Shown here piece after piece: positions 8 through 61,299 of a stretch of 64,000 nucleotides of DNA. Location of the stretch: positions 5,736 to 69,735 of the forward strand of contig LCFP01000002.1 of assembly GCA_000999095.1 (NCBI GenBank), written 5' to 3'. The notes under the pieces are model-generated. The model saw only the letters and a program-made list of their open reading frames with translations. It ran no database searches and was not told the DNA's origin. Positions within the stretch are counted from its first letter, which is position 1; every line of letters starts with the position of its first letter. The translations under genes were made by a program, and so were the position numbers. Source of the stretch: Candidatus Gottesmanbacteria bacterium GW2011_GWA2_43_14. GTDB taxonomy: Bacteria > Patescibacteriota > Microgenomatia > 2-02-FULL-39-11.

Positions 8-2392
8 GTGGTTTTTCCCTCGAATTTCCTGGCTGCCTTTTATTCTCCATGGGCTACCATGAAGTTTCCACAATATCCGGCGGGTATTCCATATAAACCG
101 ATTGGCGGTAACGATAACGTCAGGATGTTCTATCCGTACAGATCCTTTATCAATGAATCGTTATCTCGAAGACAATTTCCGTTATGGAATCCCTACAATT
201 TTTCCGGGTCACCGCTTTTGGCCGATTTTCAGTCAGCAGTTTTCTATCCGCTGAATATAATTTATTTTTTTCTGCCGCAAATGACCGCCTGGTCATTGCT
301 TGTGGTTATTCAGCCGGTTCTAGGTACTGTCTTTATGTATCTGTATTTGCGCTTGTTTATAAAAGTTAAAGCGTCTCTTTTAATGGGCGCGGTCTCTTTC
401 GGTTTTTCAGGCTTTCTGATCGTCTGGTCAATGGAAAATGCCGTGGTTGGACAGACTGTTTTGTGGTTTCCGCTGATACTTCTTCTGACGGAAAAATTTG
501 CCGTTATAAGCTCAATAAAATATTTTGTCCCGCTGGTCATAACTCTTGCCGTATGTTTAATTGCAGGTCACTTCCAGTGGGCATTTTATATTTTTGCGGT
601 CACCCTGATCTATGGACTTATCAGGATTAACAGTTTAAATAAAACAAAGAAATTCCGCAGGTTATCCCAACTTGTCTTAGCCTATTTTTTCTGTTTTCTG
701 CTTGTCTCCGTTCAACTGTTGCCGTCGATCGAAGCATTTTATCATTCTGCCCGAAGCACTACCTCCATAGAACCCCTGTTAAACGTCTATATATTACCCC
801 TTAAATACCTGGTAAAAGTGCTTGCTCCGGATATCTTCGGCAATCCGGCCAGCGGTAATTATTTCGGTCAGGGTTTTTATAACGAAACTGTTTTATATGC
901 CGGCATAATTCCGGTTGTATTTGCCGCTTTCTCCGTACTCAAGCTCAGAAAAAATAAAATAGTCTCTTTTTTTCTTTGGACAACTTTCATTTCCTTGCTT
1001 TTCGGCATTAAATCGCCATTTTCCGACTGGTTTTACCGCTTGTCTTTGCCTTTGATCACAACCTTTACACCCAGCCGGATATTCTTTGTCACATCAACCG
1101 GTCTTTCAATTTTATCCGCTTTCGGACTATCTTACTGGCTGAATAAAAGGGATAAAACAAGCAGCCGGATTATTTCTCTGACTTCACTGGTTTTTATCGT
1201 GATTCTCTTGTTTTTTGCAGGAATATATTATCTGACCGAAGTGTTTTTAATTAAAAACATGCTGCTGGAATTTTTTTATATCCGTATTAAGCCGAATTCC
1301 CTGATGTCCGTTGCCAAGGCAACTACAAGTCTCAGAAACATAGTTCTGCCTGTATTGATGGTCTTATCTCTTATTCCTTTGACTTATCTTAAATACAGAA
1401 AAATTGCCGGTTTTCTTATTGTCCTGATTTTTTTTACGGGCCAGCTGTATTTTCTGAATAAATATCTAGTTTTGGGGGATCAGGCACTTCTTTACCCGGA
1501 ACATTTCATTTTTTCAGACATTTTGTCCCAACGAAATAAATTTGGCAGGTTTGTCAGTTTCGGCTTGCCTATTGCGGGAAATGTCGCTATGGAAAAAAAG
1601 GCTTATTCACCCGATGGCATTGATCCCGTATTTTCCAGAAGGTACGGACAGTTGATTGAGGCTGCCAAAAACGGTGGCAGATATACAAATGATATCGATA
1701 GGATTGCCGTTGATGTCTCCGGTTATTCCGATAATTATAAAAGTTGGGCTAATGATAAAAATTACCGTTTGTTAAATTTGCTGTCTGTAACCCGTATCTA
1801 TAATTACGAGAATGCATATAAAGATCAAGTCAATTTTTCCGTACTCTTTCCGGAATCCCGGTTCTTGCCTGTCTGGAATCGTGACGGCTGGCAGGCTTAT
1901 GAAAATAAAAATGCTAATCCGAAAGCCTTTCTGGCTGATTCATATTTAGTCGAAGCAGAACCGCAAAAATCATTGGATGAAATTTTCAATCCCGCAAATG
2001 ATTTGGAAGAAATAGTCATTTTGGAAGAAGAACCCGGTATTTCCGGATATGAAGTAGGAAGTGATAATGGGGAAGTTAAATCGGCAACTATTACAGATTA
2101 CCGGGCACAGTCAGTAAAAATTTCTGTTGAAACGGATAAACCGCGCCTGCTGTTTTTGTCCGACAATTATTATCCTGGCTGGGTTGCCCGGATTGACGGA
2201 AACAAAACTAAAATATACCGCGCTGATTTTGCATTCCGGGCTGTTACGGTCCCGCAGGGAAAACACACGGTAACATTCTCCTTTGAACCTGATCTTTTTA
2301 AAATAGGTTCTGTCATTTCTGCAACAACCCTTCTTCTTCTCGTCATGTTATTTATAATGAGAAATAACTTTAAGAAATTATTCGTTACCTAA
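8..2392 (+). CDS. Large polytopic membrane protein, YfhO-like GT-C glycosyltransferase family (putative); possibly 5'-truncated by the window edge
   Basis: 794 aa with many predicted TM helices and a C-terminal TM anchor (IGSVISATTLLLLVMLFIM). Size and architecture are typical of YfhO/GT-C proteins. The frame stays open to the window start and the N-terminus lacks the expected leading TM helices. Confidence 0.45.
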   Translation: MVFPSNFLAAFYSPWATMKFPQYPAGIPYKPIGGNDNVRMFYPYRSFINESLSRRQFPLWNPYNFSGSPLLADFQSAVFYPLNIIYFFLPQMTAWSLLVVIQPVLGTVFMYLYLRLFIKVKASLLMGAVSFGFSGFLIVWSMENAVVGQTVLWFPLILLLTEKFAVISSIKYFVPLVITLAVCLIAGHFQWAFYIFAVTLIYGLIRINSLNKTKKFRRLSQLVLAYFFCFLLVSVQLLPSIEAFYHSARSTTSIEPLLNVYILPLKYLVKVLAPDIFGNPASGNYFGQGFYNETVLYAGIIPVVFAAFSVLKLRKNKIVSFFLWTTFISLLFGIKSPFSDWFYRLSLPLITTFTPSRIFFVTSTGLSILSAFGLSYWLNKRDKTSSRIISLTSLVFIVILLFFAGIYYLTEVFLIKNMLLEFFYIRIKPNSLMSVAKATTSLRNIVLPVLMVLSLIPLTYLKYRKIAGFLIVLIFFTGQLYFLNKYLVLGDQALLYPEHFIFSDILSQRNKFGRFVSFGLPIAGNVAMEKKAYSPDGIDPVFSRRYGQLIEAAKNGGRYTNDIDRIAVDVSGYSDNYKSWANDKNYRLLNLLSVTRIYNYENAYKDQVNFSVLFPESRFLPVWNRDGWQAYENKNANPKAFLADSYLVEAEPQKSLDEIFNPANDLEEIVILEEEPGISGYEVGSDNGEVKSATITDYRAQSVKISVETDKPRLLFLSDNYYPGWVARIDGNKTKIYRADFAFRAVTVPQGKHTVTFSFEPDLFKIGSVISATTLLLLVMLFIMRNNFKKLFVT

Positions 2393-2790
2393 CTTTTTTA
2401 CTGCTTCCCAATAGGAGGAGTATCGTTTTAACTTTTGTACATACCAGTATTCAAATCCCCATAAAATAATATATTCCGCCTTAATTTTTTCTGACGCTCT
2501 TTTGATGTTCTTCTTAAGTTTTTCCGGAATCATGCTGGGAGTGCTTTCATATTTTTTCGGTGCTCCCATGGTTCTGCCTGCAATTCCGTGATTATTACAG
2601 GCTTGCCAAGTTTTTGCAGCTGACTGTTAATTGAGTCGTCCCGGATGCCTTTGGAAAAAGCGCCTTGGGGTGATATTTTCGGCATGCTGACCGATAAATT
2701 TGGCATTGAGTGGACGGGGAATATAACTACGTTCCCTATTTTTTAGTAGAATAAGTAAAGTATCAACCGGTTTTTCAAAATACCCCGGAA

Positions 2791-4134
2791 ATGAATAAAT
2801 TATCAATAAAATCATGGTACCTACTTTTCCCAATCTTGTTATTAGCAGTTTCTCTAAGACTGTTTAATCTGCCAGAAAGGGTCATCTTCGATGCAGACCA
2901 GGAATTTGCCGCCACATTCGCTTATGAAGTTCTAAAGATATTTCCGGTACGACTTATTGGCCAGGGTTTGTCCGTCCAAAGCCTTTTTATGGGGCCTTTA
3001 TATTTTTACTTTCTGGTTCCTTTTTTTGCAATTTCCCGTTTGCATCCTATAGGCGGTTATATAGGTTCAATTGCTTTGGGCCTTATCACTATTTCATTAT
3101 ATTTTTGGGTATTCAAATCCGTTTTTGGTACGAAAGCAGGCCTCATTGCTGCATATCTTCGCACCATCCTGTTTTTTTCCGTTCAAACGGATTTACTGAT
3201 GACTCCAGCTTTTTCAAGCGATCTTGCGGTTGTCCTTACTTGGTATTGTTTTTATAAATACTGGCATGATAAACACTTTTATCTTTTACCCTTAAGCTTT
3301 CTGTTCGGTCTCTATACCAGTTTTCATCCCATATTATTCCCTTTTTATTTTATTTTACCGGTTTTATTTTTGTTAAAAAGACATTTTCCCCCACCGAAAT
3401 ATCTGATCCTGTCTTTTTTATGTTTTTTGCTTCCGCTTTCACCACTTCTGATTTTCGAATACTTCCACAATTTTACGGAAATAAAAGCACTTTTTTTAAT
3501 TAAGAATTCAGGTAGTTCAGAAATAAAAACTGTTTCTATACTGATTGATTACCTGAAAATAATATTTATTTATCCGGTCAGAATGCTCGGCATATCATTA
3601 CCCGATAAAATTGTTTTAGTCCTGGCGTTTATATTTTATTCCCTCAGCAGTATATTTATTGCCCGAAAAATAAGTTTTTGGAAACAATCATTTCACCGGA
3701 TTTTTCCTTTAACGACTTTTATTATTTTTCTGCTGTATTATTTTATTCTCCCTGTTCATGTACCTGATTATTATTTTTCAGCCGTTTTTACCGTTATTTT
3801 TATTTATTTTGCAGGAAATATAAGTATTATGTTAAAAAAAAAGCAATTTATTTCTGCATTTTTCCTGCTTTTATTAATTACTCTTACCAATTTTGTCAGG
3901 CTTCACCAGTCATTCACAAGTCCTTTTCGCGCATCACTCAAAGACAAAGAAACCGTAATCAGAACAATTAGGCGTCTTTCTCCGGATAACAATATGAAAG
4001 TTTACTACGATACTGATCTTGGCTTGCACTTCGGTTTAGGCTATCTGCAGAGATATTACGGCATGGAAGCGAACGGCGGTCCGGGCACACCTGAATACAT
4101 TATAGTTATTCCCTCATCCAGAAGGAAAAATTAA
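2791..4134 (+). CDS. GT-C family membrane glycosyltransferase (ArnT/PMT-like, GT39/GT83-type)
   Basis: 447 aa and strongly hydrophobic. N-terminus MNKLSIKSWYLLFPILLLAVSLRLFNLPERVIFDADQ resembles ArnT/PMT-type lipid-linked sugar transferases. Confidence 0.5.
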   Translation: MNKLSIKSWYLLFPILLLAVSLRLFNLPERVIFDADQEFAATFAYEVLKIFPVRLIGQGLSVQSLFMGPLYFYFLVPFFAISRLHPIGGYIGSIALGLITISLYFWVFKSVFGTKAGLIAAYLRTILFFSVQTDLLMTPAFSSDLAVVLTWYCFYKYWHDKHFYLLPLSFLFGLYTSFHPILFPFYFILPVLFLLKRHFPPPKYLILSFLCFLLPLSPLLIFEYFHNFTEIKALFLIKNSGSSEIKTVSILIDYLKIIFIYPVRMLGISLPDKIVLVLAFIFYSLSSIFIARKISFWKQSFHRIFPLTTFIIFLLYYFILPVHVPDYYFSAVFTVIFIYFAGNISIMLKKKQFISAFFLLLLITLTNFVRLHQSFTSPFRASLKDKETVIRTIRRLSPDNNMKVYYDTDLGLHFGLGYLQRYYGMEANGGPGTPEYIIVIPSSRRKN

Positions 4135-4383
4135 CTATCTTATTCATCGGGAAGTGTAGGATTAGTGGTACTTCATCCTTAGCAATATTTAATACTGCTT
4201 ATTGAATGAAGTTAGAATATTCTATGGTACTAAAACATTCTATAAATGCAGATAATTTTAAATTAGTTATAAAAGCTTGCGCAGAGCATAGAGACAAAAA
4301 AATATTTTGAACTTCCTGGAAGTGCATTCACAAAAGAGAATGCAGTTATAGATTTATAATGCCCTATAGTATAATTCGACTTT

Positions 4384-5349
4384 ATGAATACGGAAAATCC
4401 CAGAGCACGGGGGTTACATCATCTTCAGCCGTCAGATCCTGTAATGGATCAGTGGGAAAAAATCGGTTTAATTGAACCTGATTTGGCACTTGTAAGGCAA
4501 TATGCATCAGAACTTGATGATTTTATTTATTTTTACCATCAAAAATTTAACTCATGGGTACAGAGTTTTGGAGGAAAATCATATTCTGAGATCACCACAA
4601 TTTCTCAGCATATGCTTCTCAAATTGTTGGGGACAACATCAAATGAAGACAGAGAAAAGTTTTCCTCCACAGCCTTTCCCAAATTAGCCCACCTCACCTG
4701 GAGAATTGTTTCAGCGATTGATGATTTTGCTGACAGACAATCTACGAACGCGGCAGATTTAGAAATCCTTACTGACAGCGAAGGAACAAAAGTAGCTGAC
4801 ATGATCAAGGAAATAACCAGAATTCCCAATTCCGACAAAGCCGGTCTTTGGTTTATTAAGCAAACACTTATATATATTGAAAAACATGAAATAGCTGTAT
4901 TAACCTTTGAGGAGGCAAAAGGTGCAAAGGAAAAAACAACAGGTATATTTACTCAGGCTGTAACTTTGGGCGCGTGGCCATTTCTTATGGTTAATTTCCC
5001 CCGACAAATGTCCCGGTTCCCCATTAAAAAATTTGTGCAGCATTCCATATCAGGTTCTCTGATTGCACAATGCCTGGATGATATAGCGGATTTCAGGAAT
5101 GATTTAGGAAATTCTGATTCGAGTTCTTTACTGATTTCGGCCGCAGGAAAAGCCGGAGAAAAAGACATATTAATGGATATGCTAAAGACTGGAATTCCGA
5201 TTACAATTGCAGAATTAATAAAGCGTAAACTGTATACACCAATTATATTTACGGAATATTTTCAATCTCTGTTAAATAAAATGCCTCAAGCGCCTTCCGA
5301 TATGAGATCATATTTTACGTATCAGTTTTTCAACCTTGAAAGTGATTGA
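4384..5349 (+). CDS. Class I isoprenoid-synthase-fold protein (polyprenyl synthetase / squalene-phytoene synthase-like) with two DDxxD motifs
   Basis: AIDDFAD at aa 112-116 and LDDIAD at aa 231-236, about 119 aa apart. This matches FARM/SARM spacing. GSLIAQCLDDIAD resembles the GxxFQxxDDxxD second motif. A TATAAT at 4370-4375 lies only 8 nt before the ATG. Confidence 0.4.
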   Translation: MNTENPRARGLHHLQPSDPVMDQWEKIGLIEPDLALVRQYASELDDFIYFYHQKFNSWVQSFGGKSYSEITTISQHMLLKLLGTTSNEDREKFSSTAFPKLAHLTWRIVSAIDDFADRQSTNAADLEILTDSEGTKVADMIKEITRIPNSDKAGLWFIKQTLIYIEKHEIAVLTFEEAKGAKEKTTGIFTQAVTLGAWPFLMVNFPRQMSRFPIKKFVQHSISGSLIAQCLDDIADFRNDLGNSDSSSLLISAAGKAGEKDILMDMLKTGIPITIAELIKRKLYTPIIFTEYFQSLLNKMPQAPSDMRSYFTYQFFNLESD

Positions 5350-5571: not shown

Positions 5572-6003
5572 CTATATTTTTTTACCACTCACATCACCAA
5601 TCGGCTCGACTATTTTCCAGTAGGAATCCTTTCGGACGACTTTGCCCTTTTGAAACTCCCAAAGATCACAACCTCGCACATTCAAAATATCCCCTGATGT
5701 TGAAGTTCCAGTGAGCGTCCATTCTGATACACCCGTATCTGCATATGCTGACACCCAATGTCTATCGTCTCCGTAGTGAACGTCAGGAATACCTTCGAAT
5801 CGACTGGCAAGAGCTTTACGCACCTGGTCCTTGCCGACGAAGCGTTGTCCCCAGGGTTCAGGGCCCCTTGGAAAATCAAAGGAGCAGTCATCAGAGAAGA
5901 ATTCCATAATCGCATCGAGATCATGATTATTGAATGCTTCAAGAATTTGCTTTAAAGTCCCGACTGTGATGTCCCCATGGTTTATATTTCTTTTAACTGA
6001 CAT
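5572..6003 (-). CDS. SnoaL-like / NTF2-like (ketosteroid isomerase-like) small enzyme
   Basis: 143 aa; the motifs TLKQILEAFNNHDLDAIMEFFSDDC and the WEF...GK...SYW pattern are typical of SnoaL_2/NTF2-fold proteins. Local GC is clearly higher than the flanks. Confidence 0.55.
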   Translation of the reverse strand: MSVKRNINHGDITVGTLKQILEAFNNHDLDAIMEFFSDDCSFDFPRGPEPWGQRFVGKDQVRKALASRFEGIPDVHYGDDRHWVSAYADTGVSEWTLTGTSTSGDILNVRGCDLWEFQKGKVVRKDSYWKIVEPIGDVSGKKI

Positions 6004-6144
6004 TATCTAATTTTAACAGATTTTCCTCCGAGTTGCGGACAGTATTGAGAACTTATATTTTAGCCTGTCAGATAAGCTTATTTAATTATATGTACAGGCT
6101 ACTGGACGATGTTGTAACTTATTTCGCAAAGCAAGTTGGGTCAA

Positions 6145-6618
6145 TTATCTTTTTATTTCTTGCTCTACTTGTAAAACATACGTATCTCCACTGGAAGTTA
6201 TTATTCGTAAGAACCATTTACCATCTTTTGTAAGTATTCCGTCAGCGTTCTCTCCGTTTGTCATATTTAAAACATTAAACGTCGCTTTGATATTTTCAGG
6301 TCCTTTTTGATTATAGAATGTAAAATTTCTTGTTGATTCATCTTTTAATCTTTCTTCGTAAACAATAATTGCACCTTCGTATTCTAAACCTTTTAAATCC
6401 GAATCTTCAACTTTGTTTATTCTCAATGCTTGAGGTAAAGAAGTAAACCCATGAAAACGAAGGTTGGTTTCAAAACCCTGAATAAGTCTGTCTTGCCCGT
6501 AAGTTTCGCCAATGTTTTTAGTTTTTGTTCCATCAATCGGAGATAATCGGTTAAATTTATCAATGCTTTGATATAAATTTGATAAATTATTTTGAATAAT
6601 TGCTGGTCTTATATCCAT
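6145..6618 (-). CDS. Hypothetical protein
   Basis: 157-aa ORF with AT-rich codon usage like the host. No recognisable motif. Confidence 0.35.
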   Translation of the reverse strand: MDIRPAIIQNNLSNLYQSIDKFNRLSPIDGTKTKNIGETYGQDRLIQGFETNLRFHGFTSLPQALRINKVEDSDLKGLEYEGAIIVYEERLKDESTRNFTFYNQKGPENIKATFNVLNMTNGENADGILTKDGKWFLRIITSSGDTYVLQVEQEIKR

Positions 6619-6938
6619 AATTTTGGTCTTTTAAGAATAATCTAATACTTATACTATAATTTGTAAAGCGAAATAAACGAAATAAATTACAGATATAAAT
6701 TGATATAGTAGCGTCTATAAATTTGTACACCTTATTTAACGATATTCAAACCGAAACTTTGGACTATTGGAATAATATTTTCCTTAATTTAAAAGACTAT
6801 ATTTGTACTAGGCTCTGAAGTTAGGATCTCTTTAAAAATACTATTAGAACGAACCACATAATTACATTTCTCCTATATTCAAATATATTAATTGCTTATC
6901 CTATTTAAATAAAATAATATCGAATTAAATATTTATAA

Positions 6939-8147
6939 TTGAAAATGAAAAATGAAATAAATATATGGTCAATAAAGAATAAAAAAAATAAATTTCTTCA
7001 GATCAAATATTTCTTAATATTATTAGCGCTACTTTTGATCGTATTCGCTATCTATTTCCAAATTTTAAATAAAATTAATTTATTAACGATTCAATTTCAA
7101 ACTACTAATCCATCTCCTACTATTAATCCGGAAGAAGTAAAAAAGGTTAAAAAAGAAAAGTACGTTCAAAATATTCTTTCGTCTATGACACTTGAAGAAA
7201 AGATCGGACAGATGATTATGTGGGGTATAAATGAACCTGTATTATCTTCCGAATCAGCATCTATGATAGAAGATACTCATGCAGGAGGAGTGATAATAAT
7301 GATTAATAAAGATCAAGTATTCACACCACAACAGATCAACAAGCTAACTCATCAAATCAAGTATTTAAATAACAAAATACCGCTTTTTATTGCCATTGAT
7401 GGAGAAATCGGAATAATAAAATCTAAAATATCTGGTTTTGAAAATTATAATCAGTTTCCAGAATATATGGATGACAGTAAATTCTGCTCCGAAGTATCTG
7501 ATATATCAAACTTTCTTTATGATAATGGAATTAATGTTAACTTTGGAATTATTGCTGATATTGGTTGGAATCAAGGTTTTATCAAATACCGAACATATGG
7601 AAATACTCCTGAAAGTGTAAGAAACAGAATTACTACAGCAATTGATTGTTCAAATAATAATTTACTTATAACTGTAAAACACTTTCCCGGGCATGGAAGA
7701 ACTGTAGTAGATTCTCATTATACTTCTCCCATTATTGAGACCGACTATGACAAATGGCTAAAAACAGATAAAGTTCCTTTTCAAGAAGCTATAGATAAAA
7801 AAGTGGATCTCGTTATGATGGGACATTTGATTTATAACAAAATCGCTAGTGAACCAGCCAGTTTATCACTGGTTCATAATAATAATGTCCGTCAAATGGG
7901 TTTTGATGGAATTATTATTACTGATGATTTGGGTATGTTAGAAAGTAGTGGAATAGAACCTAAAGAAGTTCTAAATAAGGCAATTAATGCTAAAAATGAT
8001 ATTTTGTTATATGTAAACCATAGGCTTGATGCGAATGAAATAATCAATCAAATCGTTAATGAAGTTGAAATTCATAATATTTCTGTAAATAGAATAAATG
8101 AAAGTGTTCAACAAATATTAAAAAGTAAATATTCAATAATTGATTAA
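6939..8147 (+). CDS. Glycoside hydrolase family 3 N-terminal domain protein (NagZ-like beta-N-acetylhexosaminidase), membrane-anchored
   Basis: EEKIGQMIMWGI and KHFPGHGRTVVDSHYTSP (the GH3 KHFPGHG motif). N-terminal TM segment. Confidence 0.7.
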   Translation: MKMKNEINIWSIKNKKNKFLQIKYFLILLALLLIVFAIYFQILNKINLLTIQFQTTNPSPTINPEEVKKVKKEKYVQNILSSMTLEEKIGQMIMWGINEPVLSSESASMIEDTHAGGVIIMINKDQVFTPQQINKLTHQIKYLNNKIPLFIAIDGEIGIIKSKISGFENYNQFPEYMDDSKFCSEVSDISNFLYDNGINVNFGIIADIGWNQGFIKYRTYGNTPESVRNRITTAIDCSNNNLLITVKHFPGHGRTVVDSHYTSPIIETDYDKWLKTDKVPFQEAIDKKVDLVMMGHLIYNKIASEPASLSLVHNNNVRQMGFDGIIITDDLGMLESSGIEPKEVLNKAINAKNDILLYVNHRLDANEIINQIVNEVEIHNISVNRINESVQQILKSKYSIID

Positions 8148-19661: not shown

Positions 19662-20762
19662 ATGAAAATAACAGTTTCAGTTATAAAAGCTGATGTCGGG
19701 TCCGTCGGCGGACACAACCGTCCCAGCGAAAAACTTTTAGCTTCACTTCATAACCATCTGAAACAAAATGCCCAAAGACTTCTCAAGGATTTTAAAGTTA
19801 CTTTTACAGGAGATGACGGCTGTCTTTTGATGAGCCATACTAAAGGGGTTGACCATCCAGAAATTCATAAACTGGCCTGGGAAGCTTTTATCGAAGCCAC
19901 CAAAGTGGCCAAAGAACAGGGCTTGTACGGCGCCGGCCAGGATCTTCTGAAAGACGCCTTTTCCGGTAATGTTCGCGGTATGGGTCCGGGTTCCTGTGAA
20001 ATGGAATTTGAGGAAAGACCTTCAGAGCCTTTAGTTCTTTTTGCCTGTGATAAAACCGATCCGGGAGCATTCAATTATCCGATTTTCCGGGGTTTTGCCG
20101 ATCCCTTTCACAACGCCGGACTTCTTTTGGCACCGGATATGGCTGTCGGCTTTGAATTTACCATCATGGATGTCAACTATACCGAAGGCGATAGGGTGAT
20201 TGTCCTGTCAACTCCGGAAAACTATTATGATATGGCCGTTTTATTACGCGATCCGGAACATTATGTCGTTGAATCTGTCAAAGCCAGGTCAACCGGAGAT
20301 GTGGCAGCGGTAGTTTCAACTTCAAGACTCCATAACATTGCCGGAAAATATACCGGAAAAGATGACCCGGTGGCGTTGGTCCGAACTCAGAAGCAGTTCC
20401 CATCAACCGGTGAAATCCTGTCTCCGTATGCTACAGCCCACTACGTGGTCGGAGACAACCGCGGCAGCCATATTGTATCCCTGATGCCCTGTAAGCAAAA
20501 TGCCATTATTTCGTTCTTTGACGGTCCGGCTATCGTGACTGCCATGGGATTCTGTATCCATAACGGCATCTTTACCGAGAGTGTCGATCTCTTCGACCAG
20601 CCGTTCTGGGACATGATCAGAAACAAGGCAGCCGAAAAAACCATGCATATCAGGGACCAGGGCTTTTTCGGTGCAGCCATGGCTCCCATGGAAGAACTGG
20701 AATATACAGGTGTTGTCGAGAGAATTAAACTCTTGGACAAGAAATTTATAATCAGGAAATAA
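19662..20762 (+). CDS. fbp: Fructose-1,6-bisphosphate aldolase/phosphatase (archaeal-type bifunctional class V FBPase)
   Basis: N-terminus MKITVSVIKADVGSVGGH is characteristic of FBP aldolase/phosphatase; about 366 aa. AAGGAG ribosome-binding site at 19648-19653. Confidence 0.8.
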   Translation: MKITVSVIKADVGSVGGHNRPSEKLLASLHNHLKQNAQRLLKDFKVTFTGDDGCLLMSHTKGVDHPEIHKLAWEAFIEATKVAKEQGLYGAGQDLLKDAFSGNVRGMGPGSCEMEFEERPSEPLVLFACDKTDPGAFNYPIFRGFADPFHNAGLLLAPDMAVGFEFTIMDVNYTEGDRVIVLSTPENYYDMAVLLRDPEHYVVESVKARSTGDVAAVVSTSRLHNIAGKYTGKDDPVALVRTQKQFPSTGEILSPYATAHYVVGDNRGSHIVSLMPCKQNAIISFFDGPAIVTAMGFCIHNGIFTESVDLFDQPFWDMIRNKAAEKTMHIRDQGFFGAAMAPMEELEYTGVVERIKLLDKKFIIRK

Positions 20763-41680: not shown

Positions 41681-41756
41681 TGGTGACCCGGGAGCGAATC
41701 GAACGCTCAACCTTCCCGTTAGAAGCGGGATGCTCTGTCCGTTGAGCTACCGGGCC
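41681..41756 (-). tRNA. tRNA-Arg (anticodon UCU), CCA encoded
   Basis: Reverse complement GGCCCGGTAGCTCAACGGACAGAGCATCCCGCTTCTAACGGGAAGGTTGAGCGTTCGATTCGCTCCCGGGTCACCA. Confidence 0.85.
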
Positions 41757-41763
41757 ATTCCGG

Positions 41764-41835
41764 AGCGGCGGAGGGGATTTGAACCCCTGACCTTCTCCTT
41801 GGAAGGGAGACATTCTACCGCTGAACTACCGCCGC
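41764..41835 (-). tRNA. tRNA-Gly (anticodon UCC)
   Basis: Reverse complement GCGGCGGTAGTTCAGCGGTAGAATGTCTCCCTTCCAAGGAGAAGGTCAGGGGTTCAAATCCCCTCCGCCGCT. Confidence 0.85.
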
Positions 41836-41841
41836 TTAAGG

Positions 41842-41914
41842 TGCCGAGGGTCGGAGTCGAACCGACATCATGTGTTTTTCAGACACACGCCGTGACCACC
41901 TTGGCTACCTCGGC
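41842..41914 (-). tRNA. tRNA-Phe (anticodon GAA)
   Basis: Reverse complement GCCGAGGTAGCCAAGGTGGTCACGGCGTGTGTCTGAAAAACACATGATGTCGGTTCGACTCCGACCCTCGGCA. The D-arm is atypical, hence lower confidence. Confidence 0.75.
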
Positions 41915-41949
41915 TTATAAAATATATCTTATCACAAAACCCCGAAGTG

Positions 41950-42023
41950 TGGACCCGAGAGGTCTCGAACCTCTGACCTTTGCGATGTAAGCGCAACGCT
42001 CTGACCAACTGAGCTACGGGTCC
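41950..42023 (-). tRNA. tRNA-Val (anticodon UAC)
   Basis: Reverse complement GGACCCGTAGCTCAGTTGGTCAGAGCGTTGCGCTTACATCGCAAAGGTCAGAGGTTCGAGACCTCTCGGGTCCA. Confidence 0.85.
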
Positions 42024-42099
42024 AACGAGTGTTTTTAGCTCCAACTATTTTATAGGAATACTTTAACTGGCGCAACCTGATTTGGTACAATAAAAGCAT

Positions 42100-42170
42100 T
42101 GCGGGGTCGTCTAATGGTAGGACAGCAGCCTTTGGAGCTGTTTATCATGGTTCGAATCCATGCCCCGCAG
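42100..42170 (+). tRNA. tRNA-Gln (anticodon UUG)
   Basis: TGCGGGGTCGTCTAATGGTAGGACAGCAGCCTTTGGAGCTGTTTATCATGGTTCGAATCCATGCCCCGCAG, with a U1-A72 pair typical of tRNA-Gln. Confidence 0.8.
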
Positions 42171-42176
42171 CAAAAT

Positions 42177-42794
42177 ATGAATAAAAAAATGAAGATATTA
42201 TTTGTTTTGCTTATCTTATTGGTGTTATTAGGGTATAGATATTATAAAAATGCAATATTAGATGATTACAATTCAAATGAAATGTTAAACCTAACCATTT
42301 CTCAACCCCCATATCCATCAGAACAGCCGCATTTAAATAATTCCAAAACAAAGTACATTTATAATGATCAATATATTACGTTTGAATATCCCCAGGTCTG
42401 GAAAGCAGATTATAACCGGCAAATTGGAAATCCGTATGTTGTTAATGTTGACTTTACTGGTGAATGTAATCCATATCGGGTAGTTTCTTTTTCTTACAAG
42501 AATACTAATCCGAATGACTCAGAAAGTTTCACAGTAGGACAAAAAAACCCACATGGTCCCGGAAACCAAACATCAAAAACGATAAAAATTAACGGTATTA
42601 CCGTTGGTGAAAATATACAACCAGTAGGTGATGGATCAGGTGGATATGAGCCTAAAGTAGTTATTGATCTATTATCTAAATCTAAGAAATTCCATTTCTA
42701 TTTTATTGCTGTAATAGGATATCGGAATTCGTTTGAAGAGACGTATAAAATAGATTTATTACCTATTTTAAATAGTATAGAATTACTGGATTAA
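42177..42794 (+). CDS. Hypothetical secreted/membrane-anchored protein
   Basis: Start trimmed to the ATG after the tRNA-Gln (MNKKMKILFVLLILLVLLG...), which is an N-terminal signal/TM segment. Confidence 0.45.
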   Translation: MNKKMKILFVLLILLVLLGYRYYKNAILDDYNSNEMLNLTISQPPYPSEQPHLNNSKTKYIYNDQYITFEYPQVWKADYNRQIGNPYVVNVDFTGECNPYRVVSFSYKNTNPNDSESFTVGQKNPHGPGNQTSKTIKINGITVGENIQPVGDGSGGYEPKVVIDLLSKSKKFHFYFIAVIGYRNSFEETYKIDLLPILNSIELLD

Positions 42795-44522: not shown

Positions 44523-45500
44523 ATGACTACCCGGCGTGAATTTTTAAAATTAGCAGCGGCATCAATTTTGGCTGGATGCATTCCTCCAGCTCCACCCAGT
44601 ACAACGCCTTTTGAGATTATACCTACCCCATATCCAGAATTTGTTGACCCGAAACTAATAACTTACGGCCAGCAGTTGGCGGATTGGACTGTTGCCGATA
44701 CGCTGATGGTAAAAAAATTTTCGGAAATTGACCAGGCAGCCCTGCTATTGTCCGGTGAAACCGATCCGGGACAGCTCATGTCATATGTCAATATACCGCT
44801 TGGTTACCTGATAAACAATGAGAGAGATCCGTACCTACGCTTTAATGCCGGAATCCAGACGGATCCTGATGCCAAGTTCAACATGACTACCAAAGCTGGT
44901 GACCCAATTATTGTACCAATTTCCTCAAATGTCACATTTGAATTTGTACTACCCCAAAATTTGGAGAATTCGGGGTTTGCCAAAATTACTATGTTGCGAA
45001 TGGGACTGGAGGTATTGGATTTCCCATACTATTGTGAAATTTATCGCCAACAGTTGGAAGAAACGGGTATACAGATTGATGATCAGAGTGTTTCAGCTCT
45101 GGGAATACCGCCCGACCTGGTCAATTTTTCCATATCCAGGGATATGGACGCTATTCTCCTCGCAACTGGCAAATCTCCTCTTTTACCTTACCTGACAAAA
45201 ATGGGCAGCGATATCCGCGCGTCCGTGACTTATGCCAATTGGCTAACCCAATATGATGCAGATGAAACCGACCTACCTCAAGACCAAACCGAACTTTTAT
45301 CTACTCTTCGCATTATCAAAACATTAATGATAGATAAAGAGCTGATCACAAAAGAAGAATCAGGACTTTATGTATGGACCAATGGTGCCCCTCCCCAAAT
45401 CAATGCTTCTGATTTTGTACAATTGATTGATGAACTGCAACATAGATATCAAGAAAGTAACTTACAGGGTTTTTTCATAAGCGAAAAAACACTTCAATAG
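44523..45500 (+). CDS. Tat-secreted lipoprotein, function unknown
   Basis: Twin-arginine motif TRREFLKLAAASILAGC with a lipobox LAGC. Confidence 0.5.
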   Translation: MTTRREFLKLAAASILAGCIPPAPPSTTPFEIIPTPYPEFVDPKLITYGQQLADWTVADTLMVKKFSEIDQAALLLSGETDPGQLMSYVNIPLGYLINNERDPYLRFNAGIQTDPDAKFNMTTKAGDPIIVPISSNVTFEFVLPQNLENSGFAKITMLRMGLEVLDFPYYCEIYRQQLEETGIQIDDQSVSALGIPPDLVNFSISRDMDAILLATGKSPLLPYLTKMGSDIRASVTYANWLTQYDADETDLPQDQTELLSTLRIIKTLMIDKELITKEESGLYVWTNGAPPQINASDFVQLIDELQHRYQESNLQGFFISEKTLQ

Positions 45501-46277: not shown

Positions 46278-47387
46278 CTATTTTTCAATTTGGTCTTTAA
46301 GGTATTTTTGCACAGCTGACCAGCGGTTTGTTCCTTCTTTAGGCACTAAAATTGCTCCGCCGGCAGAAGAAGAATCTGCCCTAAGGACGTTTTCAGTTGA
46401 GAGATTTATCCTGACAACCCCGAATTCCTTTGCTTTTGTTATGGCCGGTATCAAATATTTAACCGCTTCGCCGTCCAAATCAGTTGATATATTCTTTGAT
46501 AGGTCGCTAAAAAAACGCGGCAGGTTGTCCAGGGATTCGAGACTCAGGATTCTTTTCTTTAAAGCCAACATAACTTCCTGCTGCCGTATTCCCCTGGAGA
46601 TATCTCCGGCTGAAGAACCGTGGCGTGAGCGGACATAAGCCAAAGCGTCCCCTCCCTGCATGCTGACTTTGCCCTTTTCAAAATTGAGATGCTTATAACG
46701 GCAGGGAAACTGCCTCTCCAGTTCAAATCCCGAATATTTTGCGGATACGTCCCCCACTTCTTCTGCCGTCATGCCGCAGGTATCAAGTTCCCGTCCGCGG
46801 ACAGGATACCAGGAGTCGTCCAGAGTTTCAGATACATCCACCTCAATGCCTTTAAGATTGATGCCCACCGTCCTGTCAAATCCGACAAAATCAATACCTG
46901 TATAATAATCAATTTTCAGTCCGGTGATGGTGCCGATAAATTCTTTCATTGCCTGCCGGCCGTTACGACCGTAGGCAGCAAAAGCTCCGTTGATTTTAGT
47001 ACTCTTGCCGTTTCCCAGGGTAACCCATAAATCACGGGGGATGGAAATGAGGGCGATTTTCGCTGTTTCAAAGTCAATATAAACGACCTGCAAGACATCA
47101 GTCAGGTGCCCGCCTTCATGTCCGGCTCCGCCATAGCCCAAAAGCAGCATACCCAGTGATTTATCACCGATGTCCGTACCGTCCTGTTGCTTCTCTGTTG
47201 TTTCAGACAGTACCTGCGGAATATTTTCAACTGTCGTATTTTTCCCGGCCCTGATTTTTTTGAAACTGAAAAGACCTATTACCGCCACAGTCAAGACAAA
47301 AAAACCGGCTAAAAAAAATTTCCGTGGTATTTCGAGCTTTGGCTTGATTTTTTCGGAAAGGCCTAATAAAGGCTTATAGCCAGTCAT
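46278..47387 (-). CDS. LytR-CpsA-Psr (LCP) family cell-envelope glycopolymer transferase
   Basis: N-terminal TM segment; MLLLGYGGAGHEGGHLTDVLQVVYIDFETAKIALISIPRDLWV is the LCP core. Confidence 0.8.
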   Translation of the reverse strand: MTGYKPLLGLSEKIKPKLEIPRKFFLAGFFVLTVAVIGLFSFKKIRAGKNTTVENIPQVLSETTEKQQDGTDIGDKSLGMLLLGYGGAGHEGGHLTDVLQVVYIDFETAKIALISIPRDLWVTLGNGKSTKINGAFAAYGRNGRQAMKEFIGTITGLKIDYYTGIDFVGFDRTVGINLKGIEVDVSETLDDSWYPVRGRELDTCGMTAEEVGDVSAKYSGFELERQFPCRYKHLNFEKGKVSMQGGDALAYVRSRHGSSAGDISRGIRQQEVMLALKKRILSLESLDNLPRFFSDLSKNISTDLDGEAVKYLIPAITKAKEFGVVRINLSTENVLRADSSSAGGAILVPKEGTNRWSAVQKYLKDQIEK

Positions 47388-49669: not shown

Positions 49670-49831
49670 TTTCTCATCTGATTTAATGCGTGACGCAAAT
49701 CTTTCCAAAGTCAGATATAAAGTTAATTCTGAGGGCAAATCGTTCTCATCATTAATAATTAGTTCTTTTCGTTTAGACATTGACAAATATTGAAGTGAAA
49801 ATAATTAAATAAAATACTATAAATTATTTTG

Positions 49832-49913
49832 TGCCGAGGAGAGGACTTGAACCTCCACGCCTTGCGGCACAGCCTCCTCAAGACTGCGTGTATACCAATT
49901 TCACCACCTCGGC
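49832..49913 (-). tRNA. tRNA-Leu (anticodon GAG), type II
   Basis: Reverse complement GCCGAGGTGGTGAAATTGGTATACACGCAGTCTTGAGGAGGCTGTGCCGCAAGGCGTGGAGGTTCAAGTCCTCTCCTCGGCA. Confidence 0.8.
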
Positions 49914-49975
49914 ATTGTGTGGTTTACCCTGTTATTTTATCACAGGATTTTAAGAGGAAAAGTATTGTCGCGACG

Positions 49976-50062
49976 TGGTGCCCTGAGAGGGAGTTGAACC
50001 CCCACGCTCGTAAAAGCACACGCTCCTGAAGCGTGCCTGTCTACCAATTCCAGCATCAGGGC
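49976..50062 (-). tRNA. tRNA-Leu (anticodon CAG), type II, CCA encoded
   Basis: Reverse complement GCCCTGATGCTGGAATTGGTAGACAGGCACGCTTCAGGAGCGTGTGCTTTTACGAGCGTGGGGGTTCAACTCCCTCTCAGGGCACCA. Confidence 0.85.
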
Positions 50063-50064
50063 TC

Positions 50065-50139
50065 TGGAGCGGGCGATGGGATTCGCACCCACGGCCTCTT
50101 CCTTGGCAAGGAAGCATTCTACTGCTGAACTACGCCCGC
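50065..50139 (-). tRNA. tRNA-Gly (anticodon GCC), CCA encoded
   Basis: Reverse complement GCGGGCGTAGTTCAGCAGTAGAATGCTTCCTTGCCAAGGAAGAGGCCGTGGGTGCGAATCCCATCGCCCGCTCCA. Only a 2-nt spacer to tRNA-Leu(CAG). Confidence 0.85.
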
Positions 50140-53035: not shown

Positions 53036-54754
53036 ATGCAAAGTTCCAGCCAATACGACAACGGTAACCAACAGGCTCATTCAGATAATAACCAGTCCCA
53101 TAACGGCCAAGGTTATCCTCCTGCCATTGGAGTGCTCGAACCTCAACCACAGGGCGATACTATCCCCATTTCAAAATACACCAAAGCTTTAATCAAAAGC
53201 TGGAAATTTCCTCCCAGTCCGCATAATTCATCAGTTGTAAAAATTTCCGTTTCACAGACGGTTTCCTTTGCCGCTTTTATCTACGAAAAAATGCGCAATG
53301 CCGTCGAGTTCCGGGAAGAACACCTCATCAGGAGGGCAGCCATTGAAAGAATCATCAAAAGACGGATTCTTCTCAATGAAAACGGCCGGGAAATTGCTGA
53401 ACCCCTCATTAAGGAACTTCTCTGGGCCAGGTATTATGAAAATAATACACTCGGTGAAGAAAAAATAGGGGAAATTCAGTCCATAACAGACAAATACTTT
53501 TTCCTGCGGAATGAAATCTCAGCCGGCAGGGGCAGCAAGGAACAGGAAAAGATTTCCGATTTTACCCTGGCGGTCATGTCCTGTGAAATAGAAGAAAGAC
53601 TGTCACCGCCATACCGACTTGAAGCTTTTACCAATTATGTTTTCCAAATCCTCAAGCCTTACGTCAAACCTTTTTCACAGGATGACCGGGAAAAGGACAT
53701 CCAGGTTTACATTGCTGTCGACAGGACATTCGCACACAGTGATGATCCCATGATCCGATACCATCTGCTAAAACTGGTCATTCCGGAAATTAATCAGGTC
53801 AGCTGGCTGTCAGCAGACAAGGTATTGCCTCAATATTATGAGGCTTTTCAAAGGATTGAAAGGGATATGAACCACCCGCTGGGTTTTAAAGTCAGAAATG
53901 CCATAAAAAAACAAATCCCGCCGTTTCTGATACTCAGGGACATATTTGAACAGAATACACCGGTAATTGAAAAGATTCTAAGTGACGACCAACGGTTAAA
54001 ATACAAGGTTGATGAAGCATGCAGAAAAAGATATGACGAGTCGAGTTCGCGCCTTAAAAGAACCGCAGTCCGCAGTTTCATTTATATCCTCCTGACCAAA
54101 GTTGTTTTCGCCCTGCTTCTGGAAATTCCTTATGACTTCTATATTTTGCAGCATGTTTCTTATCTGCCGATTGCCGTTAACGTCATATTCCCGCCAATCC
54201 TCATGACTCTGATAATCTTAACCGTTTCCATACCCGGGGATGACAATACCCGGCGCATTTATCAGCTGATCAAAGGCATAATTGATAATGACCCTGATAC
54301 ACCGGCGGCGGTTGGCAGCGGCATTTTCGTCAGCAAAAGCTCCAAAACCAGAAGTTTTGTTTTTACGACCATATTCACCCTATTTTACGGTATGACCTGG
54401 CTTCTGAGTTTCGGCTCAATAATTTATGTTCTGACTGTGCTGGATTTTTCCGTCGTCAGCCAGGCAATTTTTATCTTTTTCGTTACCCTGGTGACATTTT
54501 TTGCTTTCCGCGTCATTCAAATTACTCAAGAATTCCAGGTTGTTTCCAAAGAAGGCATGCTTTCGACGATCGGCGATTTTTTCTTTTTGCCGATAATACG
54601 GGTCGGCCAATGGCTGTCAGGGGAGGTTTTGCAGCGTTTCAACTTCTTTATCTTTTTCCTTGATTTTATTATCGAAATGCCTTTTAAAGCCATCGTGGAA
54701 GTCTTTGACGAGTGGATCCACTTCATGCGTCTGAAAAAAGAGGAAATATTCTGA
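53036..54754 (+). CDS. Large hypothetical membrane protein: Q/N/H-rich N-terminus, ~330-aa soluble domain, C-terminal multi-TM domain
   Basis: 572 aa. TM helices are clustered in the C-terminal 230 aa. No recognisable catalytic motif. Confidence 0.4.
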   Translation: MQSSSQYDNGNQQAHSDNNQSHNGQGYPPAIGVLEPQPQGDTIPISKYTKALIKSWKFPPSPHNSSVVKISVSQTVSFAAFIYEKMRNAVEFREEHLIRRAAIERIIKRRILLNENGREIAEPLIKELLWARYYENNTLGEEKIGEIQSITDKYFFLRNEISAGRGSKEQEKISDFTLAVMSCEIEERLSPPYRLEAFTNYVFQILKPYVKPFSQDDREKDIQVYIAVDRTFAHSDDPMIRYHLLKLVIPEINQVSWLSADKVLPQYYEAFQRIERDMNHPLGFKVRNAIKKQIPPFLILRDIFEQNTPVIEKILSDDQRLKYKVDEACRKRYDESSSRLKRTAVRSFIYILLTKVVFALLLEIPYDFYILQHVSYLPIAVNVIFPPILMTLIILTVSIPGDDNTRRIYQLIKGIIDNDPDTPAAVGSGIFVSKSSKTRSFVFTTIFTLFYGMTWLLSFGSIIYVLTVLDFSVVSQAIFIFFVTLVTFFAFRVIQITQEFQVVSKEGMLSTIGDFFFLPIIRVGQWLSGEVLQRFNFFIFFLDFIIEMPFKAIVEVFDEWIHFMRLKKEEIF

Positions 54755-57831: not shown

Positions 57832-58866
57832 CTATTTCTCTCTTAAGACATAAAAAGTAGCTTTGCCTTTTGCTTTCCTACTAATTAAACCTAACTCTAT
57901 TAATTTTTTAAAATCTAATGCTCTAGTTGCCTTCGCTCGGTCAACTAATTTTGCATAATCCCGGTCAGAGATAAATCCCCTTTCTTTAATAAACTCTAGC
58001 ATCTTTAGGTGATAGGGTTTAAGTTGGGTTTCTGGACTCATTCCAACCTGTGGAAGTAGTTTTTGGACCCTTAGTAGTTCATCGATAATTCCTTCTGTAA
58101 AATATTCTAGCCAAGGAGTGAAATCAATTTTATCTGTTAATTCATAGTAATTGCCAAATTCTCCTACAGTTTGAAAATATTTAGTAACATTTTTATTGTA
58201 ATAATGCTCAAAACTGAAAAGGTTAAAAGTATTTAATCCCATTTCAGCCAAAAGCACTTTTGTAGCAAGGCGGGTTGTTCTTCCGTTTCCATCCATAAAA
58301 GGGTGAATAATTACCATTTGCTTGTGGAATATACCAGCTAAAATAAGAGGATCAATTTCGTTTCGGTTGCTATTTACAAACCCAATTAAATCCTCTATTA
58401 GTTTCTTTACATCTTTTGCATCAGGAGGTAAATATATAACTTTTCTAGTTCTCGGATCGTTTACAACTACTGGTTTCTCTCGCAATTTTCCAGATTCAAA
58501 TTTAGGTAATAATCCTTTAGTAATTTCTTTTTGAATTCTTAATATCAGATTAAGAGATAATTTTACTTGTGCCTTTTCAAGTTTTTCATTTAAATTCTGG
58601 AGTGCTTGATTGTAATTTAAAATCTCCTTCTCGCTATCCCTTATATGAACAGACTTTGATATGAGGATTTTTTTAACCTCGGTTAAAGGAAAAGGATTCC
58701 CTTCGATACTCGTTGAGGCGTATGTTGAAACAGCCCTTGCAGTCTTTTCAAGCTCTATTAAAACAACATTAGGAAACCGCCTATTATTTAGTTCATTTAC
58801 TAAAGCATTAACTCGTTTAATATTTGATAAAAGACGATCTGTAATAGTATATCGAGGTGTTAACAT
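57832..58866 (-). CDS. Fic family protein (AMPylase-type) with C-terminal winged-helix domain
   Basis: Canonical Fic motif HPFMDGNGRTTR. Confidence 0.85.
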   Translation of the reverse strand: MLTPRYTITDRLLSNIKRVNALVNELNNRRFPNVVLIELEKTARAVSTYASTSIEGNPFPLTEVKKILISKSVHIRDSEKEILNYNQALQNLNEKLEKAQVKLSLNLILRIQKEITKGLLPKFESGKLREKPVVVNDPRTRKVIYLPPDAKDVKKLIEDLIGFVNSNRNEIDPLILAGIFHKQMVIIHPFMDGNGRTTRLATKVLLAEMGLNTFNLFSFEHYYNKNVTKYFQTVGEFGNYYELTDKIDFTPWLEYFTEGIIDELLRVQKLLPQVGMSPETQLKPYHLKMLEFIKERGFISDRDYAKLVDRAKATRALDFKKLIELGLISRKAKGKATFYVLREK

Positions 58867-59799: not shown

Positions 59800-61299
59800 A
59801 TGTCAAAAAAATCTTATTGTTATTTGTTTGCAACGGTTATGCTAGGCGTATTCCTGCGGCTTTATCGGTTCCCACAAACGTTAATTTTAGGTACCGATCA
59901 GGGAGGTGCCTATATATTAGCTGATAGAATAATCAACCAGGGTCATATTTTATTGGTAGGTCCTCTAACTAGTCTTTTGCAGGTTAATCTTTTACCGCCT
60001 GCTTTTTATTATATCGTGACTTTTGTTTATCTTCTCTTTAGAAGTGAAATCAGTGTATCTCTTGCCTTTTCATTTGCCGGAATTGTCTCTGTTATTCTTA
60101 TTTATTTTCTAGGTAAAAATATATTCAATGCTAAAAGCGGCTTAATTTCGGCATTAACATATGCCGTTTCTCAATCCATGGTCTGGTACGGCCGTAATAT
60201 GTGGGAGCCCCATCTGGTCCCTTTTTTTGTCATTTTGTCATTATTATTTCTATTTAAAGCCAAAAATCAAACTAAATTAATATTTCTTCACCTATCGTTA
60301 TTCTTTTTTTTCCTCAGTTTTCTTTACGTTTCATCATTACTTTTATTACCTGTTTATTATTTCTGCTTTGCTTATTTTTATAAATCAGTTAAATCGTCAG
60401 TACGCTGGCCGTATATTAAAACTGTATTATTATTTCTTATATACGGCGGTCTTGTTTATCTTCCGGTTATTATTTTCGAGCATACCCGTTCATATCCGTC
60501 CTTAAATTATCTCTTCCAGGTATTGCAAGGTAAAACTGAATATGTTTCTTTTCAAAGTCCAAATTATTTGACTTCGGTAACTACCCATATTTTTCTCTTT
60601 ATAAATTCCATCTTCATCAATGTTAATATTTTCCAGTCACTAATTATATTTATTATATTTATAGGACTTGTTTCTTATATAACTGTAAAAACAAAAAATA
60701 ACCGCTTTAATCTGTTTGTATTATTAATGTTTTTCATCATAGCTTTTTTACTGTCCGGATTATACAGCCAAAAACCTTCAGACTATAGACTGGCCAGTCT
60801 TTATCCGGTATTTTTTTTATTGATTGGTGCCGTTACAAAAGCCGGAAATCGAACTATTTTATTTTTGATTATTTTTATAATAATTGCATTAAATATAAAA
60901 TCAACTCTCGATAGTATAAGAAACCTTAATCTGCAAAATTATCTGCATGCCTACCGTGTTGCAACAGAAATTCTTATCCGGTCTGAGAATCAAAAATTCA
61001 CCATCTATACCGTTAAACCCTTCGATTTTAGCAATTTCCATTCTACCCCATATTGGTGGGCATTGGAGAAACTTACGGGGAAAAGATTAATTACTTTAAA
61101 TGATAGGGGTAACTGGATTAACCAGGATTTAGATTTAAATAGCAGTCTGATTTACTTAATCTGCAGTGATACGGAAAATAAATCTTCATTTCAGGATAAA
61201 TGTTTAGACTATTTTGCTTCAAGCTATCGGTTATCTGACCCGGTAAAATATTTTTCCATTGATAATGCCACCGTCTATGAGTTTCAGGGAATCTATTGA
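59800..61299 (+). CDS. GT-C family membrane glycosyltransferase (PMT/ArnT-like, GT39-type)
   Basis: MSKKSYCYLFATVMLGVFLRLYRFPQTLILGTDQG... and about 12 TM helices; similar class to the gene at 2791..4134. Confidence 0.5.
   Translation: MSKKSYCYLFATVMLGVFLRLYRFPQTLILGTDQGGAYILADRIINQGHILLVGPLTSLLQVNLLPPAFYYIVTFVYLLFRSEISVSLAFSFAGIVSVILIYFLGKNIFNAKSGLISALTYAVSQSMVWYGRNMWEPHLVPFFVILSLLFLFKAKNQTKLIFLHLSLFFFFLSFLYVSSLLLLPVYYFCFAYFYKSVKSSVRWPYIKTVLLFLIYGGLVYLPVIIFEHTRSYPSLNYLFQVLQGKTEYVSFQSPNYLTSVTTHIFLFINSIFINVNIFQSLIIFIIFIGLVSYITVKTKNNRFNLFVLLMFFIIAFLLSGLYSQKPSDYRLASLYPVFFLLIGAVTKAGNRTILFLIIFIIIALNIKSTLDSIRNLNLQNYLHAYRVATEILIRSENQKFTIYTVKPFDFSNFHSTPYWWALEKLTGKRLITLNDRGNWINQDLDLNSSLIYLICSDTENKSSFQDKCLDYFASSYRLSDPVKYFSIDNATVYEFQGIY

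Follow-up and report, generated by a model that had tools for sequence, protein, structure and literature searches.

An open reading frame (ORF) at 4384-5349 in a 64,000-nucleotide stretch of contig LCFP01000002.1 (hereafter, the window) from Candidatus Gottesmanbacteria bacterium GW2011_GWA2_43_14, a member of the Candidate Phyla Radiation (CPR), encodes a soluble, 321-residue protein that most likely has the fold and the metal-binding aspartate motifs of prenyl and terpene synthases. The balance of evidence leans somewhat towards a stand-alone, cytoplasmic protein of the class I isoprenoid-synthase fold that has diverged strongly and has no partnership with the GT-C membrane glycosyltransferases encoded nearby. 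This all-alpha fold is common to trans-prenyl diphosphate synthases, terpene cyclases, and squalene/phytoene synthases. The gene and its main motifs are located as follows:

4384-5349, plus strand: the target gene, taken from the ORF list, with a product of 321 amino acids.
4570-4578, plus strand: G63-G64-K65, followed by Y67-S68, in the loop after helix 34-61; a tentative equivalent of GGKRxR without its arginines.
4720-4734, plus strand: DDFAD (D113-D117), the first Asp-rich motif, located at the C terminus of predicted helix 98-118.
4933-4944, plus strand: K184-T185-T186-G187, in predicted helix 175-204, the hhalign partner of the "KT" region of trans-prenyl diphosphate synthases.
5077-5103, plus strand: DDIADFRND, the second Asp-rich motif, located at the C terminus of predicted helix 214-235.

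The product is an acidic, soluble protein of 36.5 kDa with a pI of 5.6 and no transmembrane-like segment; membrane association was ruled out by a maximum 19-residue hydropathy of 1.19. The start codon at 4384 is supported by an M-x-x-E N-terminus common to all seven homologues. A phage or defence-system origin was dropped, as there was no PHROG or PADLOC match.

The protein belongs to a very rare family without annotation, of which about seven sequence clusters were recovered among 15 billion proteins. A word-indexed search of 5.8 billion sequences with the single target protein returned three members, and the profile version of the same search added nothing; six came to light when 1.84 billion cluster representatives were searched exhaustively with a profile. 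No relatives were found in scans of 185,579 GTDB species genomes or of JGI metagenome contigs, and no homologue was detected in the closest reference genome among those scanned (Gottesmanbacteria, LepA 83% identical). The contigs carrying family members have GC contents of 33-53%, which suggests that the family is scattered across hosts.

Comparison of the six full-length family members (312-322 amino acids, 25-60% identity) revealed 37 invariant positions. In the first Asp-rich motif, D113 and D117 were invariant and D114 was kept in five of the six; the second Asp is not universal, the motif reading ALDYVAD in P0003 and AVGVDSD in the short member P0007. In the second motif, DDIAD corresponds to residues 232-236 (nt 5077-5091) in the context G224-SLIA-Q229-CL-DDIAD, and the two motifs start 119 residues apart. 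Here, D232, D233, D236, and D240 (i, i+1, i+4, i+8), together with Q229, were invariant, a pattern that recalls the FQxxDDxxD of prenyl synthases as well as the spacing (N/D)Dxx(S/T)xxxE found in terpene cyclases. An earlier interpretation of the window (the sequence-only reading) had described AIDDFAD and LDDIAD about 119 residues apart, the latter in a GxxxxQxLDDIAD context, and residues 113-117 and 232-236 bear this description out. It had also allowed for the DDxxD matches being coincidental. Two DDxxD motifs arose in 0.33% of 200,000 composition-preserving shuffles; a stronger argument is the invariance of the Asp residues in the six full-length members, which speaks against coincidence and on which we judge the clusters to be functional residues. 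Conservation was also observed elsewhere. Residues T185, T186, and G187 were invariant, with K or R at position 184, as were G63, G64, Y67, and S68. Upstream of the first motif, in the conserved stretch F98-P-K100-x-x-H103-x-x-W106-R107, the residues K100, H103, W106, and R107 were invariant, and further invariant polar or acidic residues were D131, E169, S247, S248, and E259.

Two AlphaFold2 models, based on three- and seven-sequence alignments, were all-alpha, with pLDDT (predicted local distance difference test) values of 80.6 and 82.5 and a pTM (predicted template modelling score) of 0.82. In both, the Asp motifs are located at the C termini of two long helices (98-118 and 214-235), and the second motif is followed by three short helices and then by two long helices that close the chain; we take this layout to match helices D and H, alpha1-3, I, and J of prenyl synthases. 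A Foldseek comparison with the PDB showed that about 45 of the top 50 matches per model were class I terpene cyclases, trans-prenyl synthases, or squalene synthase, with a best probability of 0.96-0.97 and a best E of 0.021-0.026. The best template modelling scores (TM-scores), 0.40-0.44, were obtained with the octaprenyl diphosphate synthases 1WL3 and 3TC1. In absolute terms this fold evidence is weak (E >= 0.02, TM-score <= 0.44). The viral structure library BFVD was used as a control for the noise level of Foldseek. Matches with TM-scores above 0.3 comprised two giant-virus "trans-prenyltransferases" (0.43 and 0.30) and two uncharacterised giant-virus proteins, whereas all other BFVD matches scored 0.10-0.19, which is noise for this query. 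Thus, the isoprenoid-synthase fold proposed in the sequence-only reading is favoured by confident all-alpha models and by the nature of the Foldseek matches, but the scores themselves remain low.

Remote sequence relationships were assessed with small reference profiles assembled from annotated E. coli and plasmid genes, one of 10 isoprenyl diphosphate synthase (IPPS) sequences and one of eight phytoene/squalene synthase (PSY/HpnD) sequences. The hhalign comparison of the target family with the IPPS profile gave a score of 26.6 (E 0.0099, probability 4%) and an alignment that was collinear over residues 127-294. It paired the KTTG of the target (KTTGIFTQAVTLGAW) with the KTGA of the IPPS "KT" helix (IspA HKTGALIRAAVRLGAL), and AQCLDDIAD with FQVQDDILD, the FQxxDDxxD second motif of IPPS. 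The score was reached by one of 60 block-shuffled and none of 60 column-shuffled profiles, and the reversed profile scored 18.3. As a calibration, the IPPS and PSY profiles, which represent accepted members of one superfamily, scored 27.1 (E 0.0079) against each other by the same procedure. The target family scored 14.6 (E 0.43) against the PSY/HpnD profile, which is at noise level, with the first Asp motif alone aligned. By these scores, the family appears to be about as distant from IPPS as PSY is, and nearer to IPPS than to PSY, which does not prove homology to IPPS by sequence alone. In the N-terminal half, relaxed settings paired SAIDD with SLIHDD, collinear with the rest but not significant. 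No alignment that agreed with the motifs was obtained in single-sequence hhalign comparisons with CrtB, a kaurene-synthase-like protein from rhizobia, or a terpene synthase from Streptomyces, and a tblastn search of the plasmid collection for terpene-cyclase relatives recovered the query alone. According to the low-confidence alignment, the basic sites that bind isopentenyl diphosphate (IPP) and the diphosphate group are changed in the target: GGKRxR reads GGKSYSE, RRG reads DSEG, and about 10 residues of the GK region after the second motif are deleted, so that K/R184-T185 would be the sole remnant of the basic sites. The absence of these Arg and Lys residues from the tentative alignment argues against chain elongation.

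Comparison with known enzymes demonstrated that the target shares features with several groups of class I enzymes and differs from each of them. Like trans-IPPS (PF00348; E. coli IspA, T. maritima 1WL3), it is a predicted all-alpha bundle of about equal size, with an Asp-rich motif ending each of two long helices and the motif order GGK, DDxxD, K-T, Q-x-x-DDxxD; this group also gave the best Foldseek TM-scores (0.40-0.44) and the hhalign score of 26.6. Unlike trans-IPPS, it has no Pfam match, lacks the GGKRxR arginines and the RRG, has lost the GK region, is 26 residues shorter between the first Asp-rich motif and KT, and carries the invariant K100, H103, W106, and R107 upstream of the first motif. 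These differences make chain elongation with IPP doubtful. The class I terpene cyclases of bacteria and fungi (PF19086/PF03936; epi-isozizaene synthase, 9HR0 T-muurolol synthase, 5NX6 1,8-cineole synthase) gave the best Foldseek E values (0.02-0.03, probability <= 0.97) and resemble the target in the canonical DDxxD, the i, i+4, i+8 ligand spacing of D232/D236/D240, and the length of about 320 residues in one alpha domain. However, the second motif of the target uses Asp throughout (DDxxDxxxD) in place of NSE/DTE, neither an RY pair nor an effector triad is recognisable (the stretch reads M307-x-x-Y310-F), TM-scores were just 0.26-0.34, and there was no profile-level likeness to the single cyclase sequences tested. 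The squalene/phytoene synthases (PF00494; CrtB, HpnD, human SQS 1EZF) share the motif spacing of about 120 residues, and 1EZF reached a Foldseek TM-score of 0.38-0.40, but the hhalign score of 14.6 was noise and there was no Pfam match.

The non-canonical class I synthases (IB-IF; BalTS, AsR6, PeuTPS) offer a parallel of another kind, as they too are unseen by sequence search and have a predicted class I fold, and they can sit outside terpenoid clusters and form small families of hypothetical proteins (PMC11234867). By description they are set apart from the target, carrying DYLDNLxD, D(N/D), ND, or RxxKD where the target keeps a canonical-looking DDxxD (PMC11234867). Altogether, the target fails the family tests of PF00348, PF00494, and the terpene cyclases, yet most resembles their superfamily, and it probably represents a new divergent family that is unrecognisable by sequence.

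The surroundings of the gene bear on the proposal of the sequence-only reading that it acts together with GT-C enzymes. The relevant features are:

8-2392, plus strand: YfhO-family GT-C membrane protein of 794 amino acids (PF09586, E 1.8e-20) with 11 transmembrane-like segments.
2791-4134, plus strand: PMT_2/ArnT-like GT-C membrane protein of 447 amino acids (PF13231, E 7.2e-7) with nine transmembrane-like segments.
4327-4376, plus strand: promoter-like hexamers, TTCACA-16-TAGATT and then two TATAAT boxes, no more than 30 bp before the ATG.
59800-61299, plus strand: third GT-C gene, PMT_2 (PF13231, E 5.9e-9), with eight transmembrane-like segments.

The ORF at 8-2392 probably extends past the window start, as bases 1-7 contain no in-frame stop. 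The third GT-C gene had been correctly recognised, and its product is a distant paralogue of the 447-residue protein (BLASTP 25% identity, E 5e-11). The target gene had been placed directly after two GT-C genes; the YfhO-like and PMT_2 genes do lie upstream on the same strand, but with intergenic gaps of 398 bp (2393-2790) and 249 bp (4135-4383). The promoter-like hexamers in the 249-bp spacer suggest that the target may form a separate transcription unit; in a consensus scan of this spacer, promoter-like sites were no more frequent than expected by chance. None of the five other homologue contexts contained a GT-C gene or any other gene common with the window, and a tblastx comparison of loci L001-L006 with the window found the target to be the sole shared gene. 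Thus, a functional tie between the target and the neighbouring GT-C genes was not supported.

A SnoaL/NTF2-like (ketosteroid-isomerase-related) gene at 5572-6003 on the minus strand is convergent to the target, 222 bp away, and is followed by a 157-residue ORF without a family match (6145-6618, minus strand). NTF2-like enzymes at times tailor terpenoids or polyketides; this adjacency was not kept beside the homologues. Just upstream of the third GT-C gene, a low-GC stretch carries a gene for a Fic/DOC-family protein with a C-terminal winged-helix-like domain (57832-58866, minus strand).

The three most distant family members (P0004-6, the sister clade) were always found in one conserved three-gene module, which is absent from the window. 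Its locations are:

L003, 8218-11913: three-gene module.
L004, 4017-7726: three-gene module.
L005, 2-3691: three-gene module.

One partner is a divergently transcribed protein of about 573 residues with no Pfam match and a weak Cas3-HD-like stretch, itself belonging to a tiny family. The other, encoded downstream in an adjacent or overlapping position, is a GGDGT protein of about 320 residues at the Pfam threshold for DAGK_cat. No homologues of either partner were found in the window. Shorter relatives of the 573-residue protein (P0011, P0012) occur in contexts with Ham1p-like and NUDIX genes and without a synthase-like gene. Two larger ORFs of the window had no Pfam match (53036-54754, plus strand, 572 amino acids; 44523-45500, plus strand, 325 amino acids), and the former is unrelated to the 573-residue partner (tblastn E > 0.04).

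As a working model, helices 98-118 and 214-235 would bring their terminal Asp clusters, both invariant, into opposition at the opening of the helical bundle, where they would hold a Mg2+ cluster. This cluster would bind and ionise the diphosphate of an allylic (prenyl) diphosphate, with K/R184-T185 aiding diphosphate binding. The analysis itself establishes the gene, its conserved motifs, the rarity of its family, the all-alpha model, the enrichment among the fold matches, and the absence of conserved synteny; the binding of Mg2+ and diphosphate, the class of substrate, and the type of reaction are parts of this model that we infer. Because the basic residues of elongating synthases (GGKRxR, RRG, GK) appear to be missing, the protein seems less likely to set chain length than to act on a preformed prenyl diphosphate, as an enzyme of the terpene-synthase or prenyl-transfer type. 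The gene would be an accessory one with its own promoter, rather than a functional partner of its GT-C neighbours. There is a precedent for such a protein in class I terpene synthases that were missed by sequence search, lay outside gene clusters, and were found via structure models. Three of six candidate types mined in this way were active and three inactive (PMC11234867).

Several results weigh against an isoprenoid-type enzyme. Scans of the target and its family members with Pfam, NCBIfam, PADLOC, and PHROGs gave no match, and the Pfam families that the sequence-only reading had pointed to (PF00348, PF00494), like the terpene-synthase families, matched none of the seven family members even at E <= 10. 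Sequence searches of the PDB (phmmer and hmmsearch) with the single protein and the seven-sequence profile returned only chance matches, namely designed repeat proteins, Fab light chains, and NusA. The hhalign probability against IPPS was just 4%, global hhalign of the family to IPPS failed, the pairing of GGK with GGKR in the N-terminal half was not significant (score 11, E 0.4), and family members scored no more than 4.9 bits with a local IPPS HMM (--max). No isoprenoid pathway genes were found in the window. The helix of the first motif bears the invariant polar residues K100, H103, W106, and R107; in known enzymes this stretch forms part of the hydrophobic wall of the prenyl pocket, so the substrate may be something other than a hydrocarbon. 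In addition, the sister clade consistently pairs the gene with those for a DAGK_cat-like kinase and an HD-like protein rather than with genes for terpenoid tailoring.

A rival reading is an all-alpha metal-binding protein with non-isoprenoid chemistry, whose acidic clusters would bind divalent metal together with a polar phosphorylated substrate (a nucleotide or a phospho-lipid head group, for example) and which would resemble isoprenoid synthases by convergence of fold or too remotely to say anything about function. We regard this as a possible but rather unlikely alternative. It would account for the lack of a significant sequence-profile match anywhere, for the marginal fold scores, for the polar pocket suggested by the invariant K100, H103, R107, D131, E169, S247, S248, and E259, and for the flanking of P0004-6 by two phosphoryl-acting proteins, neither of them terpenoid-related. 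However, in two libraries the fold matches singled out isoprenoid synthases, with TM-scores of 0.1-0.2 for helical proteins unrelated to them; four IPPS-type motifs (GGK, DDxxD, KT, QxxDDxxD) stand in the same order; and the score between the family and IPPS equals that between IPPS and PSY. A bolder idea, which we consider less probable again, is that the target defines a new, very rare class of enzymes with the class I fold, in which canonical Asp motifs and a polar, basic-lined pocket (K100, H103, R107) could serve to transfer a prenyl or other diphosphate ester onto a polar partner, or to ionise it beside one. In the sister clade, the enzyme would then join a DAGK-like kinase and an HD-like phosphohydrolase in an undescribed pathway of three genes for a phospho-lipid or phospho-metabolite. 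The N-prenyltransferase KabA, which reportedly transfers a prenyl group onto a polar partner, would be a parallel.

Two further explanations appear far less probable. The rarity and patchiness of the family (about seven clusters among 15 billion proteins, on contigs of 33-53% GC) and the loss of basic substrate-binding residues expected for IPPS would suit a non-catalytic or decaying remnant of a prenyl-synthase-like protein, serving as a regulatory or structural subunit or nearing loss. Such a remnant is very improbable, given the intact reading frame, full-length homologues of 312-322 residues, a confident AlphaFold2 model, and 37 invariant positions that include all metal-ligand-type Asp residues, which are typically lost in non-catalytic IPPS subunits. 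Least probable of all is the proposal of the sequence-only reading, in which the target would be a trans-prenyl synthase dedicated to chain elongation and would supply the adjacent GT-C enzymes with their polyprenyl-phosphate carrier, the three genes forming a lipid-carrier/glycan module. It draws on the same-strand adjacency of genes of which both upstream ones belong to GT-C families, on trans-prenyl diphosphate synthases being the nearest profile-level and best-TM-score relatives, and on the small residues V109 and I108 at -4/-5 before the first motif, which in a weak alignment would resemble those of long-chain synthases. Against it stand the 398- and 249-bp gaps with promoter-like boxes before the target, the lack of conserved adjacency (GT-C genes in none of five other contexts, the target alone shared by tblastx), the lack of a detected homologue in the closest Gottesmanbacteria reference or the other scanned genomes among the 185,579, and the apparent replacement or deletion of the basic residues that bind IPP and diphosphate. 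Moreover, the carriers used by bacterial GT-C sugar donors come from cis-prenyltransferases (UppS), enzymes of an unrelated fold. Canonical IPPS genes are already present in Microgenomates (PMC6107057). The stand-alone, diverged class I-fold enzyme is the best-supported reading.

The rest of the window fits a CPR/Microgenomates chromosome in its gene content, which includes glycolysis/gluconeogenesis genes, an archaeal-type fructose-1,6-bisphosphatase (FBPase), UvrABC/LexA, a LytR-CpsA-Psr (LCP) protein, and many tRNAs; its LepA shares 83% identity with the counterpart in a Candidatus Gottesmanbacteria metagenome-assembled genome. The FBPase gene (FBPase_3, E 1.5e-153) at 19662-20762 is clustered with those for PEP synthase, enolase, PGM, PGI, GAPDH, and PGK. 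The LCP protein is encoded at 46278-47387 on the minus strand. LCP enzymes transfer polyprenyl-phosphate-linked glycopolymers to peptidoglycan; compared with the target, this protein is the more conventional user of lipid-linked glycans in the genome. The stretch 6001-8147 is AT-rich (GC 29% vs. 42% for the whole window), contains a TTG-initiated gene for a GH3 glycoside hydrolase whose N terminus resembles a transmembrane or signal segment, and may have been acquired recently. There are 14 tRNA genes, with tight clusters at 41681-42171, 49831-50139, and 62030-62179. The TTG start of the ORF at 42099-42794 is probably spurious, since this ORF overlaps tRNA-Gln (42100-42171).

Most Microgenomates are reported to have the mevalonate pathway and linked IPPS genes (PMC6107057). 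Therefore, prenyl diphosphates are plausibly available to the host, and a second, private chain-length synthase would be unneeded. A search of the literature on terpene synthases in Patescibacteria found nothing relevant.

The CPR/Patescibacteria are regarded as minimal in their biosynthetic capacity. The more striking idea of a private carrier-lipid synthase for GT-C enzymes is unsupported, and the ecological weight of the finding is small, because the family is so rare (about seven clusters in 15 billion proteins). Its main value lies in enzymology, that is, in what substitutes for the canonical diphosphate-binding arginines and in the product of the kinase/HD-linked sister clade. If the bolder idea of a new enzyme class with a polar pocket is true, a CPR bacterium would possess a specialised isoprenoid-type chemistry that annotation pipelines miss. 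If the assignment to the class I fold is true, a hidden terpene-synthase-like or prenyl-transfer enzyme would widen the known lipid or secondary metabolism of the CPR, and the catalogue of "hidden" class I synthases seen via structure prediction would grow.

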